DNA of 36,061 nucleotides from a virus (Duplodnaviria > Heunggongvirae > Uroviricota > Caudoviricetes), in the IMG/VR virus record IMGVR_UViG_2778261222_000004, positions 1-36,061 of that record; one strand, 5' to 3'. Below are positions 1,455 through 36,061 of this stretch, piece by piece. The translations under genes were made by a program, and so were the position numbers. The notes below the pieces were generated by a model. That model did no database searches. It saw nothing but the letters and a program-made list of their open reading frames with translations, and had not been told where the DNA came from. Each line of letters starts with the position of its first letter. The first letter of the stretch is position 1.

Positions 1455-1781
1455 ATGAATGAAGAACTATTGAGGGCATTGTTTAAGATCCCAGACCCCA
1501 TCACCGTCGATGAGTTTTCCCGCCGTACAGGTAAGACCGAATCAGCCGTAAGAAAGTTGGTAGAGCGTCGACTCATCCCTCTAACTACTGAGCGCGAGGT
1601 TTTAGGCGAGGAAGGGAGTTCGCGCCGTCTTCTCATCCTTTGGAATGAGTGGCTCGAAATGGTCTATGACGCAACGAAACAGCTTCCTCCTGAGCGTAAA
1701 GATTGGCGCAATCACTGGCTTAAGAAAGCCAAGAAGCTGGCGGAAGATTTGGGATTAGGCTTTCTTAATTTTGCTGCATGA
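1455..1781 (+). CDS. cox: Cox/Apl-like excisionase and transcriptional regulator
   Basis: ATG 1455 preceded by AGGGAG (1441-1446); HTH-like segment ITVDEFSRRTGKTESAVRKLVERRLIP; divergent from repressor as P2 cox; the ORF-track start at 1386 is probably an upstream extension. Confidence 0.7.
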   Translation: MNEELLRALFKIPDPITVDEFSRRTGKTESAVRKLVERRLIPLTTEREVLGEEGSSRRLLILWNEWLEMVYDATKQLPPERKDWRNHWLKKAKKLAEDLGLGFLNFAA

Positions 1782-5190: not shown

Positions 5191-5370
5191 AGTATGCCGT
5201 TCTCACAAAAAAACCGCTTGCCATGCCGCAATCAGTCAGGTTACATTTCCGCTGCACCTCATAAAACGGGTGCCGGGTTTCGCAGCCTGCTGACAACCAA
5301 AGCGCACAACCGCGCCAGCGGTTTTTTTGTGCGTACTGTATTGCCACGTCTTTTTCGCACACGAATTATG

Positions 5371-5444
5371 GCGGGGCGTACGGGGCCGACTTCGGTCGGG
5401 CCGGGTTCTTTGGTTGCCGGTACTGCGAACCCCGTACGTCTCGC
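5371..5444 (+). other. structured element: 15-bp long-range helix enclosing a UUCG-tetraloop hairpin (candidate ncRNA or RNA regulatory structure)
   Basis: 5371-5385 (GCGGGGCGTACGGGG) pairs with 5430-5444 (CCCCGTACGTCTCGC): 13 Watson-Crick plus 2 G-U pairs; inner hairpin CCGAC-TTCG-GTCGG at 5386-5399; sits in a 370-bp stretch with no convincing ORF. Confidence 0.35.
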
Positions 5445-5507
5445 CACCCACAGTTTCGCAGCTCTGGATGGTGAGTTTTCAAAACTTACAACCAAAGAGG
5501 CCACACC

Positions 5508-33891: not shown

Positions 33892-33927
33892 TCACCGGGC
33901 ATACCCCCCCATAAACGCCCATCACGC

Positions 33928-33957
33928 AACGCACGGCTCCGGTCGTGCGTTTTCATA
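33928..33957 (+). terminator. rho-independent terminator of the late tail operon
   Basis: Stem AACGCACG / CGTGCGTT with 8-nt loop followed by TTTT, 37 nt after the stop of the last tail gene. Confidence 0.55.
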
Positions 33958-34013
33958 TCTGCCACCTGATTAATGCGTTCTGCGTGCCATTCTGGCGCTG
34001 TATGCGCACACCG

Positions 34014-34050
34014 CGTAAACGGTGTGACGTAAAGCGTGAGGTGACGTAAA
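34014..34050. repeat. three spaced copies of a CGTAAA-containing motif, including direct repeat GTGACGTAAA x2
   Basis: GTGACGTAAA at 34024-34033 and 34041-34050; CGTAAAC also at 34014-34020. Confidence 0.5.
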
Positions 34051-34156
34051 CCGCGCTACCCCCTCCAACCCGCGGGTTTTGTGTCGAAACAGTTTTTCAG
34101 TTTTCTGCCGTGCAAAAATGACCGCCAGCCCGCGCAGCAACTGAGGGAAAAGCGAA

Positions 34157-34414
34157 GATCTGAAATTTCACACTTTGAAATTTTTTTCAGTTTTCAGAGT
34201 GGTTTTTACGATCGCACAAATGGTAGGAACAATAAAACAGCATGATATTAAAAGAGTTTTCATACTTTACGCGAGACGAAAAACGATCACTAAAGGATCG
34301 CATCAAACAACCATCAAACAAAGAAGCCAGACGCGGCGCGGCCTGCGTAAAATCAAGAGCCAGAATTAAACTGAAAAAAGGATCAATGCCGCGCCTTGAT
34401 CGCGCATGACGATC
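34157..34414. promoter_or_regulatory. GATC-rich, repeat-rich non-coding region (candidate origin or methylation-sensitive control region)
   Basis: Seven GATC sites in 258 bp (34157, 34210, 34285, 34296, 34381, 34398, 34411); direct repeats TTTTTCAGTTTTC (34093 and 34183), TGAAATTT (34161 and 34176), tandem CATCAAACAA with 11-bp period (34301 and 34312). Confidence 0.35.
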
Positions 34415-34430
34415 TACGCAATAACAGGAC

Positions 34431-34455
34431 AAAAAACCGGCGCGAACGCCGGCGG
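34431..34455 (-). terminator. putative intrinsic terminator for a leftward transcript
   Basis: Stem CCGGCG / CGCCGG with a 4-nt loop; on the minus strand it is followed by a U6 tract (plus-strand A6 at 34431-34436). Confidence 0.45.
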
Positions 34456-34533
34456 AAGCATGTATCAAATGCGTGACTGAATAATGTCTGCGTTCAGGAT
34501 ATGCACAACAGAGTGTTGAAATTAGTCAACGTA

Positions 34534-34563
34534 TTGAAGCAAGAAAAAAAAGCAGGCTAGAAT
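34534..34563 (+). promoter_or_regulatory. candidate sigma-70 promoter upstream of the hok-like gene
   Basis: TTGAAG (34534-34539), 18-bp spacer, TAGAAT (34558-34563). Confidence 0.3.
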
Positions 34564-34719
34564 TCACGCGGACACCTTTCGACTGATGGCTGGACAGCAA
34601 ACACGAAGGCCAGATGTAAAAAGGCCCAACTAAACCTTATGTTCAACTCTGGGCGTTTCACAACGTAATCAATAAGCGGGCAAGAGCTTAGCGCCTTTGC
34701 AAAAAAAGGAGCAAGTGCT

Positions 34720-34860
34720 ATGTCGCAAAAATCGCTTATAGCCATCACGTTCTGCGTGACGGCAATCCTCATCATCTGGATGCTGCACGGTTCGCTGTGC
34801 GAGATACGGATGAGCTTCTGGGGAGCGGAGTTTGCGGCGTTCTTACAGTGTAAGCAGTAA
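34720..34860 (+). CDS. hok: Hok/Gef-family type I toxin (small membrane peptide)
   Basis: 46-aa ORF not in the ORF track; RBS AAGGAG 8 nt upstream; N-terminal TM helix (LIAITFCVTAILIIWML) followed by the Hok signature SLCEIR and a periplasmic tail containing ...EFAAF...C. Confidence 0.65.
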   Translation: MSQKSLIAITFCVTAILIIWMLHGSLCEIRMSFWGAEFAAFLQCKQ

Positions 34861-34869
34861 GGAAACCGC

Positions 34870-34891
34870 GACGGGGGAGTAATCCCCCGTC
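34870..34891 (+). other. strong 9-bp hairpin with GNRA-type loop immediately 3' of the hok-like ORF
   Basis: GACGGGGGA - GTAA - TCCCCCGTC; positioned like the 3' fold-back elements of hok mRNAs. Confidence 0.45.
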
Positions 34892-34947
34892 AATCGGTTG
34901 CTAAGGTTGGCTGAAGTGGCACCCTATCTCACAGACATGAACAACAA

Positions 34948-34980
34948 ACCCGCAGCGTAAAAACTGCGGGTTTTCTTTTT
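34948..34980 (+). terminator. rho-independent terminator of the hok-like transcript
   Basis: Stem ACCCGCAG / CTGCGGGT with 8-nt loop followed by TTTTCTTTTT. Confidence 0.7.
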
Positions 34981-35112
34981 GTTGCCCTCACAAATGAGGG
35001 TGACACTATTCGTAAGCAATAGGCATGACAGATCGATGCAATAAATCCGAACGATAAAAACGATCGATTTGTTATCATATCGGCAGCAGTAACCACACAA
35101 GAGGTGCCGCAA

Positions 35113-35325
35113 ATGACGCAAAATGTACGATGCAAAAATTGCAACAAACTACTTGCCCGCGCCTCATTTCACTACATTGAAATAAAATGTCCGCGCTGCA
35201 AAACACTTAACCAGATAACGAGAGCCATTGAGCACCCCACACACATGAGGAGTTATGACCGTGGGGATCGCAATCCAGCACCAACCAGCACATACACCGG
35301 AACACACCAAGGTTTATCAGACTGA
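35113..35325 (+). CDS. com: Com-like zinc-finger translational activator (Mu Com family)
   Basis: N-terminal RCKNCNKLL ... IEIKCPRCK matches the Mu Com zinc finger almost exactly; ATG 35113 with AAGAGG upstream; 3' end overlaps the methyltransferase start as com overlaps mom in Mu. Confidence 0.8.
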   Translation: MTQNVRCKNCNKLLARASFHYIEIKCPRCKTLNQITRAIEHPTHMRSYDRGDRNPAPTSTYTGTHQGLSD

Positions 35326-36061
35326 CAATGCCACGCTCTGTCGTGGGAATGCGCTGGAAATATTGCCGCTGATTGAGCCAGAAAGCATTGATGCCTTAAT
35401 CACTGACCCACCTTACAGTTCGGGTGCGACACACAAGGCCGGACGCACCAACCAGGGCAGCCATGCAAAATATCTGAACGGCGAGAACCTTCACCGCTTT
35501 GATGGGTTCGCGGGTGAAAACATGGACGCCCGTTCGTGGGCTTACTGGACACAATTATGGATGGCACAGGCACACCGCGCAGTCAGGCCGGGCGGTTATG
35601 CCCTGGTATTTACTGACTGGCGACAACTACCAGCTTTAACCGATGCGTTTCAGGCCAGTGGCTTTACATGGCGCGGCATCATTGCGTGGAACAAGGGGAG
35701 GGGGTCACGAACACCCCATACCGGGTATTTCCGGCATCAGTGCGAATACATTGTCTGGGGCAGCAAAGGCCATTTAGATAAATCGCCTTCGGGGCCGTTC
35801 GACGGCTGCATGACGTTCCCGGTTATCCCGTCAAAGAAAATGCACCCGACCGGAAAACCAGAAGAACTAATGGCAGAGCTGGTCAGAACTGCGAATAGTG
35901 GCGGAACAGTCCTTGATCCCTTTATGGGGTCAGGAACAACGGGTGTGGCTGCACTGAAAGCAGGGCGAAAATTTATTGGTATAGAAACCAGTGATCATTA
36001 TTTTGAGGTAGCAGCGCAGCGGCTTCGGGGGACTATTACCACAACCATTTCGACTACATAA
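35255..36061 (+). CDS. orphan DNA methyltransferase (beta-class amino-MTase, N6-adenine or N4-cytosine)
   Basis: DPPY motif (DPPYSSG) near the N-terminus and FxGxG (FMGSGTTG) near the C-terminus, i.e. motif IV before motif I; no adjacent restriction gene in the window; the start could be ATG 35255 or GTG 35261. Confidence 0.85.
   Translation: MTVGIAIQHQPAHTPEHTKVYQTDNATLCRGNALEILPLIEPESIDALITDPPYSSGATHKAGRTNQGSHAKYLNGENLHRFDGFAGENMDARSWAYWTQLWMAQAHRAVRPGGYALVFTDWRQLPALTDAFQASGFTWRGIIAWNKGRGSRTPHTGYFRHQCEYIVWGSKGHLDKSPSGPFDGCMTFPVIPSKKMHPTGKPEELMAELVRTANSGGTVLDPFMGSGTTGVAALKAGRKFIGIETSDHYFEVAAQRLRGTITTTISTT

Follow-up and report, generated by a model that had tools for sequence, protein, structure and literature searches.

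A Hok-family toxin gene with a diverged, possibly disabling leader in a P2-like prophage of Escherichia coli

The closest described systems to the locus analysed here are hok/sok (parB) of plasmid R1, hokW-sokW of Stx phages, the chromosomal hokA-E genes of Escherichia coli K-12, and a cluster of 46-aa Hok/Gef peptides encoded by P88-like phages (Xuanwuvirus, Peduoviridae), by Stx phages (downstream of lom) and by plasmids of the pUMNK88_Hly type. In the R1 system, Hok translation is abolished by single substitutions in the tac element and by stop codons in mok upstream of hok, and substitutions in the last stem-loop of the mRNA expose it to 3' exonucleases and abolish toxicity (PMC9841398). 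The hokW-sokW pairs of the Stx2 phages Sp5 and 933W were validated experimentally and aid phage release after induction (PMC8621323). Enrichment of hok genes in prophages has been reported (bioRxiv 10.1101/2025.08.07.668861), and the same preprint summarises the chromosomal K-12 copies as unable to mediate post-segregational killing. In a survey of 2025-26, most representative Hok peptides were toxic when expressed, and three were not.

By homology to R1 hok/sok and 933W hokW-sokW, the relatives of the present locus would produce an mRNA of about 410 nt in which a 5' tac element, GGGUGCC, is locked on a 3' fbi (fold-back inhibition) element, GGCACCC. Slow 3' trimming to the stem-loop that follows the stop codon would free tac and allow the leader to refold, and an antisense Sok RNA of about 60 nt, whose promoter immediately precedes the hok ribosome-binding site (RBS), would pair with the leader and cause decay of the message. 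The layout found in the relatives includes a TAGAAT promoter, the GGGUGCC tac stem at the 5' end, a fold-back of about 20 bp onto the 3' fbi element, a protective 3' stem-loop, and a putative antisense Sok promoter where phage 933W has the annotated position of sokW.

In this work, a comparative analysis was applied to a hok locus near the right end of the window, i.e. the whole stretch of 36,061 nucleotides that constitutes the IMG/VR virus record IMGVR_UViG_2778261222_000004. Genes for an integrase and a P2 A-type nickase are present in the window, together with those for the portal, terminase, capsid, tape measure, tail fibre and baseplate, and identical copies of the locus in E. coli chromosomes adjoin raiA-bamD. 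Judged from this gene content and location, we are dealing with a P2-like prophage integrated in E. coli and not with a plasmid, as opposed to the plasmid-like character that the sequence-only reading had seen supported by the role of Hok-like killers as classic plasmid addiction modules. The hok cassette is a moron located near the right end of the prophage, between a baseplate gene and a com-methyltransferase module; phage Chuche likewise has its cargo site beside com and a DNA methyltransferase. Relatives of the locus were found in 1550 of 5426 complete E. coli genomes (~29%), with up to 7 copies per genome. Two loci from the first extraction (L061 and L090) were regular-expression false positives and were dropped.

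The hok coding sequence occupies positions 34720-34860 of the plus strand, from the ATG at 34720 to the TAA at 34858-34860, and encodes the 46-aa peptide MSQKSLIAITFCVTAILIIWMLHGSLCEIRMSFWGAEFAAFLQCKQ, assigned to the Hok/Gef family of membrane toxins by Pfam, PHROG and RefSeq. The Pfam model PF01848 (Hok/Gef) matches residues 6-44 of 46 with 30.9 bits (gathering score 22, E 2e-7), and PHROG 251 matches with 81 bits. The NCBIfam models HokA (equivalog; 33.6 versus a cut-off of 89 bits) and Hok (subfamily; 22 versus 73 bits) both remain under their cut-offs, and therefore the peptide is not HokA itself. Its residues 4-24 form a hydrophobic stretch (highest 19-mer Kyte-Doolittle mean, 2.26) and are followed directly by SLCEIR, so that a single N-terminal transmembrane helix precedes the motif in the family order C-x-T...L-C-E...E...C/Y. 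Residues C12, T14, L26, C27, E28, E37 and C44 correspond to C16, T18, L30, C31, E32, E41 and C48 of the Hok logo from a published survey of 1264 peptides. The 67 homologues of the peptide are mostly named Hok/Gef, and the members of the 46-aa cluster are 93-98% identical to it (100% for the RefSeq copies). Identity to R1 Hok, which has 52 aa, is 30%, with the LCEIR and AAF motifs shared. The label HokW suggested by PHROG was rejected, as HokW is 51 aa long and falls in another Hok cluster.

The open reading frame, its strong RBS, the transmembrane helix and the SLCEIR signature thus stand as the sequence-only reading had placed them, and the profile comparison that it had recommended bears out the family assignment; the description of the gene as missed does not hold. 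The identical coding sequence is deposited in RefSeq as "Hok/Gef family protein" (WP_032218680.1), identical DNA occurs in E. coli chromosomes, and records of P88-type phages name the 46-aa peptide 'MokW-like host killing'. As a gene call it is nothing new: the exact peptide was annotated before, and hok is already known as common prophage cargo.

The elements that surround the coding sequence are largely those of the family. A promoter scan of positions 34000-35300 returned a single sigma-70-like site, the hok promoter on the plus strand at 34534-34563 (-35 TTGAAG at 34534-34539, 18-nt spacer, -10 TAGAAT at 34558-34563). The -10 position is kept as TAGAAT, TAGATT or TAAATT in P88, pUMNK88, A36 and Stx-phage relatives, and in hokW of phage 933W TAGAAT precedes GGGTGC at an equal distance. 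The full-length mRNA would extend from 34568 to 34980 on the plus strand (~410 nt; the R1 mRNA likewise has ~400 nt), its 5' end being set by homology to position 1 (GGGUGC) of the Rfam model RF01794 in the relatives and its 3' end by the terminator. In P88, the RF01794 match begins at GGGTGC (L001:1523) and spans the leader up to the hok start. The Shine-Dalgarno sequence (SD) AAGGAG at 34706-34711 of the plus strand lies 8 nt ahead of the ATG and, in the predictions, is largely base-paired to CCUUU (34695-34699); its predicted unpaired probability is 0.18-0.20 in the window and 0.20-0.37 in the relatives, in both full-length and 3'-truncated RNA. RNA structures here and below are thermodynamic predictions.

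Directly after the stop codon, a 9-bp GC-rich stem-loop (GACGGGGGA/TCCCCCGTC, GTAA loop) was confirmed at 34870-34891 of the plus strand; it is kept in all relatives and, by analogy with the last stem-loop of R1, probably shields the 3' end of the hok mRNA once this has been processed (truncated). It is followed on the same strand by the fbi element GGCTGAAGTGGCACCC (34909-34924), which is intact and of the P88 type but whose complementary 5' partner is gone, and by the Rho-independent hok terminator (34946-34980), with a 10-bp stem at 34946-34973 that contains 6 GC pairs, followed by TTTTCTTTTT, the T-run ending at 34980. The sequence-only reading had reported this terminator correctly, with a start at 34948, two bases inside the stem. 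The stem-loop after the stop codon is stable, and both it and the terminator downstream are conserved in the relatives. A stem-loop after the stop codon is also present in R1, and hokW has a similar hairpin at its 3' end together with the fbi element GCACCC. On these features, we take the window gene to be a Hok-family type I toxin gene of which the 3' hairpin and terminator form part. A leftward terminator on the minus strand (34428-34453; stem 34453-34436, then a T-run) was likewise found as described. It accompanies hok loci of the consensus type on their upstream side with ~90% conservation (E. coli A36, E. albertii, L066, L013), is missing from the P88-type and pUMNK88 loci, and is part of a conserved non-coding module ahead of hok, outside the core hok/sok unit.

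The leader departs from this picture. Homology to phages extends from ~34546 to 34980. This block, which is conserved in E. coli genomes as well, shows 83-86% identity to P88-like phages and ~77% to Stx phages, whereas the transcribed leader of ~150 nt (34568-34719) is only ~70% identical to the 46-aa cluster. Compared with the columns that are invariant among the relatives, the leader differs at 27 of 104, and the coding sequence and 3'UTR together at 0 of 151 (Fisher p = 3e-12); the coding sequence alone shows 0 changes at 119 columns. The flank upstream of the leader is again ~90% conserved. The allele is rare: when the leader alone was compared with the E. coli genomes by blastn, 8 near-identical copies were found, which corresponds to 8 of the 5426 complete genomes, and all other matches were ~70% identical. 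Two IMG/VR contigs carry it, and exact-pattern scans of the JGI metagenome contigs returned no sequence related to it. A donor was not found by blastn against the E. coli genomes or plasmids (best match on plasmids 73%) or by the exact-pattern scans of IMG/VR and JGI metagenome contigs, whose extra matches were unrelated chance occurrences. The leader allele is paired with two different 3'UTR types, and the diverged patch probably arose as a recombinational mosaic. Such concentrated 30% divergence is unlike the neutral decay of a dead gene.

The Rfam model RF01794, which the sequence-only reading had proposed as a check for Sok, gave no match at E<=10 in the window leader (221 nt and 1.6 kb scanned) or in the near-identical loci L011, L093 and L094. 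It matched all 17 relatives tested, namely the 15 of 15 consensus-type loci scanned together (28-53 bits), P88 and pUMNK88, with 28-53.5 bits overall, short of the gathering score (59) though with E<=0.016; plasmid R1 scored 87.2 bits. Because the same model finds all of these relatives, the missing match in the window is not a failure of sensitivity.

At 34570-34576 of the plus strand the window carries a degenerate tac, GGACACC, where all relatives have GGGTGCC (GGATGCC in Stx phages); positions 34570-34579 show a diversity of 0.00 among the relatives, and the window differs at three of them. The first 64 nt are predicted to form a 5' hairpin of -14.2 kcal/mol (z -0.6) in the window, where the relatives reach -31 to -37 kcal/mol with z between -3.9 and -5.5, and the tac/ucb stem expected of the open, translatable conformer is absent from the prediction for the window. 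Pairing between the two ends of the mRNA was assessed with RNAduplex, using the first 30 nt and the 60 nt after the 3' hairpin. In 33 unique relatives it amounts to -24 to -35 kcal/mol, which is 4-12 kcal/mol better than with shuffled 5' ends (means of about -19 to -24 kcal/mol). In the window it is -17.3 kcal/mol against a shuffle mean of -17.8, i.e. the fold-back is lost, and 3 of the 7 central pairs between the tac core GGACACC and the fbi core GGCACCC are mismatched. Among the relatives, the fbi variants GGCATCC, GGTACCC and GGCACTC all keep G.U wobble pairs, and in locus L009 a change from CGGC to CGAU is matched by a compensatory change from GUCG to AUCG. The second window-type allele (STEC313) carries the non-pairing fbi change GTCACCC, which is consistent with relaxed constraint on the fold-back. 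No alternative tac/fbi register and no compensating changes were found in the window and STEC313 alleles.

Coupling through mok is also missing. The relatives contain a mok-like frame of 60-87 codons that overlaps hok; at its start site they read ATGTGG, pUMNK88 reads ATGTAG, and the window reads ATGTAA, with GAAGG at 34605-34609 followed by a start-stop ATG-TAA at 34614-34619 on the plus strand. The GAGG box and the TGG after the ATG, both typical of the 46-aa cluster, are absent. In the window, no plus-strand open reading frame of the leader continues to the RBS of hok or into hok itself. Of 38 unique relatives, about 27 have the mok-like frame; it is broken in P88 itself and in ~10 of the 38. 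None of the 46-aa subfamily has a mok start at the site homologous to that of R1, and mokW of the hokW-sokW systems is an unmistakable frame of 70 codons whose GAGG SD is covered by sokW. The broken frames among the relatives suggest that mok dependence may not be general in the 46-aa subfamily and that the rules established for R1 may not be transferable to it. The 15-codon open reading frame noticed in the leader, MAGQQTRRPDVKRPN*, is real, but lies at 34586-34633 of the plus strand rather than at 34585-34632. As a candidate for mok it was rejected: no SD precedes it, some relatives (L060, L095, L026) have AAT or TAT in place of its ATG, and its stop lies 70 nt ahead of the hok RBS.

A Sok gene can be placed in the window by positional homology only, on the minus strand from 34678 to ~34618. 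Its putative promoter (34685-34714, minus strand) consists of -35 TTGCTC at 34714-34709, an 18-nt spacer and -10 TAAGCT at 34690-34685; it is weak, with 6 of 12 consensus positions, and falls under the threshold of the sigma-70 scan. The -10 lies at the position of the sokW -10 TAACCT of 933W (L132 433-428), 7 nt ahead of the annotated sokW 5' end, a position that TAACCT also occupies in P88-type loci (TTGCTC-17-TAACCT). The primers used for promoter-less sokW mutagenesis fall on this -10 motif, according to our reading of the primer sequences in Table 2 of PMC8621323. The candidate Sok RNA (34618-34678, ~61 nt; annotated sokW is of comparable size, 71 nt) is predicted to have a single-stranded 5' tail of ~22 nt, a stem-loop GCCCAGAGUUGAAC...GUUUAGUUGGGC and a terminal CUUUUU, and in the consensus fold of 14 homologous minus-strand segments a 5' tail that varies is followed by a conserved hairpin rich in GC and by a U-run. 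On the plus strand, the same region forms hairpin 2 (GCCCA...UGGGC, 34624-34654), the counterpart of the ucb/dcb hairpin GGCCCCGG...CCGAGGCC of the relatives, and its minus-strand equivalent is the predicted Sok terminator stem. It differs from that of pUMNK88 (GCCCCGA/UCGGGGC) by one compensatory C-G to A-U change and is weaker in the window (-8.1 versus -14 to -15 kcal/mol in relatives), while the U-run is longer (UUUUU versus UUU). The leftward terminator at 34436-34453 is unlikely to end Sok, since it lies ~165 nt past this closer hairpin with its U5 and is absent from P88-type loci. The sequence-only reading had found neither mok nor Sok placeable with confidence: for mok this proved right, and for Sok a position can be proposed. 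The difficulty arose because the allele has no mok frame and a leader without an Rfam sok match.

In summary, the window copy combines a canonical toxin half and 3' half, with its own promoter, a strong RBS, the 3' stem-loop and the terminator, with a leader in which the tac stem, the 5'-3' fold-back and the mok-like frame appear to be lost and the Sok promoter and terminator hairpin remain recognisable. It would be transcribed and would probably still make Sok, but would be translated poorly or not at all by the canonical route. Since the toxin and 3' halves are canonical but the control elements of the leader are lost, the locus is most likely a regulatory-crippled hok copy of a hok/sok-type cassette in a P2-like prophage, to which we assign a probability of about 0.5. 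In combining an intact toxin frame with disabled regulation it would resemble hokA-E of K-12, its own inactivity being presumed from the leader; compared with those genes, it carries a point-substituted leader patch between flanks that are conserved on both sides. Several observations speak against a crippled copy: the hok coding sequence is intact, with two synonymous changes as the only differences between the two window-type alleles, a hint that selection still acts on the peptide; the position of the putative Sok promoter and the terminator hairpin with its compensatory change are kept and the U-run is longer, which is unexpected for a fully silent toxin; the mok-like frame is broken in P88 and other relatives as well; and the concentrated divergence of the leader does not look like neutral decay.

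A different reading, which we hold possible though somewhat doubtful, is that the hok/sok pair works: its leader would be rewired, with a new specificity, and would escape cross-neutralisation by the Sok RNAs of the many related copies in E. coli genomes. Translation of Hok would then start directly at its own strong RBS, with Sok-directed decay as the only check and with no tac/fbi delay and no mok coupling. The intact hok coding sequence with its purely synonymous differences between the two alleles, the retained putative Sok promoter and terminator hairpin, with its compensatory pair and better U-tail, and the frequent loss of mok elsewhere in the family fit this reading. The part of the leader that would pair with the 5' tail of Sok (34655-34678) is the most variable region of the family, up to 7 copies per genome make a diversification of specificity plausible, R1 hok is not cross-inhibited by chromosomal Sok RNAs (PMC9841398), and the combination with two 3'UTR types indicates that the leader allele persisted through recombination. 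However, the relatives vary least (diversity 0.00) in just those elements of the leader that are lost, the tac stem and the fold-back, and no compensating change in a partner accompanied the loss; the predictions show the hok SD to be no less sequestered than in the relatives, and the allele is rare in the genomes and contigs searched. That the locus is a plasmid addiction module marking the element as plasmid-like is very improbable: plasmids do carry close relatives of the cassette (11 plasmids have the pUMNK88_Hly type, and 17 of the places in E. coli genomes lie on plasmids), but 1968 of the 1985 E. coli places of the family are chromosomal, and the window carries an integrase with a full P2-like virion module and has identical copies beside raiA-bamD. 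A chance small open reading frame with no toxin function is the least probable explanation, its short length of 46 aa and the sub-threshold NCBIfam models being outweighed by the Pfam and PHROG matches, by the 67 homologues with C-x-T, LCE, E and C at the positions of the published logo, and by the unchanged 119 invariant columns.

The crippled-copy reading is preferred here. The locus is a clean natural case of an intact toxin frame behind a leader that lacks the RNA-level features of its relatives, with a putative Sok promoter that matches the consensus at 6 of 12 positions. Catalogues of hok genes based on peptides count such loci as potentially active, and a peptide profile combined with a check of the leader and fold-back would tell armed copies from disarmed or rewired ones. 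More speculatively, and in our view unlikely, the diverged leader could represent a natural 'minimal' hok/sok allele that dispenses with mok coupling and the tac/fbi fold-back and has a new Sok-target specificity insulating the cassette from the Sok RNAs of the other family copies in the same genome; the R1-type delay mechanism would then be dispensable in prophage-borne hok loci. If functional, the allele would be a natural experiment on which of the R1-type RNA elements are truly required.

The 46-aa peptide encoded on the plus strand of the window (MSQKSLIAITFCVTAILIIWMLHGSLCEIRMSFWGAEFAAFLQCKQ; ATG at 34720, TAA at 34858-34860) belongs to the Hok/Gef toxin family, as the sequence-only reading had proposed: it matches the Pfam HOK_GEF profile at 30.9 bits (gathering score, 22) and PHROG 251 ("MokW-like host killing") at 81 bits. 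The NCBIfam HokA and Hok models match it below their cut-offs, and the peptide is therefore a family member and not a named E. coli K-12 protein. A search of a large protein collection returned 67 homologues; most of them are 46 aa long, carry the name Hok/Gef family protein and come from E. coli, Shigella, Salmonella and Klebsiella oxytoca. The conserved residues C12, T14, L26-C27-E28, E37 and C44 agree with the logo of a recent survey of 1264 Hok peptides. The gene is preceded by the Shine-Dalgarno sequence AAGGAG (34706-34711, 8 nt 5' of the ATG) and followed on the same strand by a 9-bp hairpin, GACGGGGGA-GTAA-TCCCCCGTC (34870-34891), and an intrinsic terminator (stem 34946-34973, then a T-run); the terminator scan also recovered a leftward terminator on the minus strand (stem 34453-34436, region 34428-34453). 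All these elements had been described before and are found in the sequence, together with a 15-codon plus-strand ORF that lies one base further on than described, at 34586-34633 instead of 34585-34632. The locus is indeed absent from the first-stage ORF track, most likely owing to the very small size of the gene, but it is not new: complete E. coli chromosomes contain DNA identical to 34530-34990, where the coding sequence is annotated as WP_032218680.1, "Hok/Gef family protein", so that the gene was already known. As a finding, the window hok is thus correct but ordinary, both the Hok/Gef gene and the kind of place it occupies being already known.

That place is not plasmid-like, contrary to what had been supposed from the toxin gene. 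The window is an integrated tailed prophage of P2-like layout, with genes for an integrase, an A-type nicking replication protein, major capsid, tape measure, tail fibre and baseplate proteins, and with portal and large terminase genes on the minus strand; 1968 of the 1985 places of this hok family in E. coli are chromosomal, and hok genes are reported to be over-represented among prophages (bioRxiv 10.1101/2025.08.07.668861). Beyond this region, E. coli MB07081 and STEC313 carry Com and a DNA methyltransferase, and after these the host genes raiA and bamD; hok thus belongs to the cargo close to the right end of the prophage, likewise its position in phage Chuche. Closeness to sequenced phages at the DNA level is limited to the hok-com-methylase segment. 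Directly downstream of hok lies a gene for a zinc-finger translational regulator of the Com family (PHROG 13819 and 6417), overlapped and immediately followed by the methyltransferase gene, which runs past the window end (35104-36061); by comparison with Mu, the two would form a com/mom-like control module that drives a methyltransferase in place of Mom. The early region holds a P1/P7-type c4/isrK immunity RNA pair, isrK (RF01394, 65.9 bits, 5254-5328) and C4 antisense RNA (RF01695, 87.1 bits, 5364-5451), both on the plus strand and above the gathering threshold. Between the baseplate gene and hok, ~650 nt (33892-34567) are devoid of annotated coding sequences in RefSeq copies and may hold an sRNA that has escaped annotation, or else a terminator acting as a backstop to antisense transcription. 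The part at 34330-34567, including the strong minus-strand terminator, recurs with ~90% conservation upstream of hok loci of the consensus type in E. coli A36 (adjoining serS), E. albertii and two IMG/VR contigs, and its 24-aa plus-strand ORF (34406-34480) is frameshifted in relatives.

Relatives of the locus were collected from phage records (P88, Chuche and Stx phage P13374), GTDB genomes, 80 IMG/VR loci, and E. coli genomes and plasmids; the block conserved among them corresponds to 34546-34980. Their promoter has a conserved -10 element (TAGAAT or TAGATT) followed by GGGTGCC, and their leader aligns from its first base up to the hok start with the Rfam hok-leader/sok model RF01794, which scores 87 bits for plasmid R1, carrier of the paradigm hok/sok, and 28-53.5 bits for P88, pUMNK88 and 15 other relatives, all at E<=0.016. 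The predicted 5' hairpin is very stable (-31 to -37 kcal/mol, z -3.9 to -5.5), and the first ~27 nt are complementary to a distant 3'UTR segment ending in GGCACCC; across 33 unique 5'/3' combinations the predicted duplex has an energy of -24 to -35 kcal/mol, which beats shuffled 5' ends by 4-12 kcal/mol. This pairing is the counterpart of the fold-back in R1 between tac, the 5' element of hok mRNA, and fbi, the 3' fold-back inhibition element (PMC9841398), and hokW of Stx2 phage 933W has the same GGGTGC...GCACCC pair. Three independent fbi variants (GGCATCC, GGTACCC and GGCACTC) keep G.U wobbles, and the locus of Salmonella enterica subsp. diarizonae shows a compensatory change, which together suggest that the fold-back is under selection in relatives. 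The GC-rich hairpin past the hok stop codon is the counterpart of the terminal stem-loop of processed, active R1 mRNA, and disrupting that R1 stem-loop abolishes toxicity (PMC9841398). About half of the IMG/VR provirus contigs (L012-L090) stop exactly 3 nt past the hok stop codon (locus length 1341); the provirus boundary calls apparently cut these records at the final gene call, and the 3'UTR with fbi and terminator is thus lost. At the diarizonae locus (L009), the enterobacterial sRNA STnc540 (RF02082, 185.7 bits, 1509-1695, minus strand) lies immediately downstream of hok and convergent with it. Near-identical E. coli-type hok genes in assemblies with the labels Planococcaceae MAG, Vagococcus sp. 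and Xanthomonas pisi are most likely contamination, because they are 74-96% identical to the enterobacterial prophage gene.

In ~27 of the 38 unique relatives a mok-like frame of 60-87 codons starts inside the 5' hairpin, its start codon being either an ATG or GTG directly behind GAAGG or an ATG lying 27 nt farther upstream, and overlaps hok. In P88 and about 10 others, several of them consensus-type, the frame breaks off upstream of the hok RBS; in the 46-aa subfamily, either mok coupling is unneeded or many copies are inactive. The window ATG at 34614 is directly followed by TAA (ATG-TAG in pUMNK88-type plasmids), and none of the window ORFs inspected, including the 34586 frame that stops at 34633, reads from the leader into hok. 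The earlier failure to place mok is explained by its absence from the window.

The antisense RNA Sok had also been left unplaced, and an RF01794 scan at E<=10 matched neither the window leader nor its near-identical counterparts L011, L093 and L094, but a site can be proposed by positional homology. In the 933W record, sokW is a 71-nt minus-strand RNA beginning 7 nt downstream of the hexamer TAACCT, a motif that the primer sequences in Table 2 of the hokW-sokW paper (PMC8621323), as we interpret them, change in the promoter-less mutant. The homologous site reads TTGCTC-17-TAACCT in P88-type loci and, in the window, TTGCTC-18-TAAGCT (minus strand, -35 at 34714-34709, -10 at 34690-34685), a candidate promoter with only 6 of 12 consensus matches. 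From it we infer a putative RNA of ~61 nt (~34678 to ~34618, minus strand), predicted to fold into a single-stranded 5' tail of ~22 nt, a 12-bp stem-loop and CUUUUU. When 14 homologous segments are folded to a consensus, a variable tail is again followed by a conserved hairpin and a U-run. Among close relatives the locus varies most at 34630-34680, the leader stretch that would pair with the 5' tail and hairpin loop of Sok (diversity 0.13-0.27, versus 0.00-0.07 in the rest of the leader in the family alignment); such variability is consistent with diversified Sok specificity among co-resident copies, up to seven per genome.

The window leader itself is strongly divergent. Across 34568-34719 it departs from the majority of the family at 53 of ~150 positions, versus 4 of 141 in the coding sequence; at columns invariant in 34 close relatives the differences number 27/104 in the leader, 0/119 in the coding sequence and 0/32 in the 3'UTR (Fisher p = 3e-12). 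Since the upstream flank (34330-34567) is ~90% identical to loci with consensus-type leaders, the divergence is a patch between the transcription start and the hok RBS. Its substitutions fall on the most conserved elements: tac (GGGTGCC to GGACACC), CGGC to CGAC, GGAGGGAATACCCG to GGACAGCAAACACG, the codon after the mok ATG (TGG to TAA), GGCCCCGG to GGCCCAAC, and loss of the GAGG box. Such an eroded or rewired leader makes Sok and mok hard to place. The predicted 5' hairpin is reduced to -14.2 kcal/mol (z -0.6), and the predicted 5'-3' duplex, at -17.3 kcal/mol, equals the shuffle mean. The allele is rare: of 5426 complete E. coli genomes, 8 carry it at >=99% identity, every other match being ~70% identical, and it also occurs on two IMG/VR contigs. 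A second allele of this type, in STEC313, has one further tac change, a different 3'UTR type and a non-pairing change in the fbi core (GTCACCC). JGI metagenome contigs yielded no relatives of the window allele, and no donor lineage was found among these contigs, E. coli genomes, plasmids or IMG/VR.

In R1, single tac substitutions abolish Hok translation, as do mok stop codons upstream of hok (PMC9841398), and most of the window hok RBS is predicted to lie in paired sequence, to no lesser degree than in relatives. By analogy, the window copy should be untranslatable; a regulatory-crippled copy is the most likely state, at a probability of about one half. Against this, the coding sequence is pristine, the two alleles differing there by two synonymous changes only, mok is dispensable or broken in many relatives, and a 30% divergent patch beside unchanged sequence resembles recombination or directed change and not neutral decay. 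The candidate Sok promoter position and the terminator hairpin are also kept; the hairpin shows one compensatory pair, C-G to A-U, and its U-tail is longer. These features could instead point to a rewired but functional hok/Sok pair with a new Sok specificity, for which the concentration of family variability in the Sok-tail target and the presence of up to seven copies per genome also speak; we consider this main rival a real, though lesser, possibility beside a crippled copy.

If active, the window hok would likely serve roles known for other hok systems, namely prophage retention through post-segregational killing, aid to lysis and release after induction, as for hokW-sokW (PMC8621323), or interference with other phages, as R1 hok/sok does with T4 according to a citation in the same paper. 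The sole point of interest in the locus is its eroded or rewired leader.
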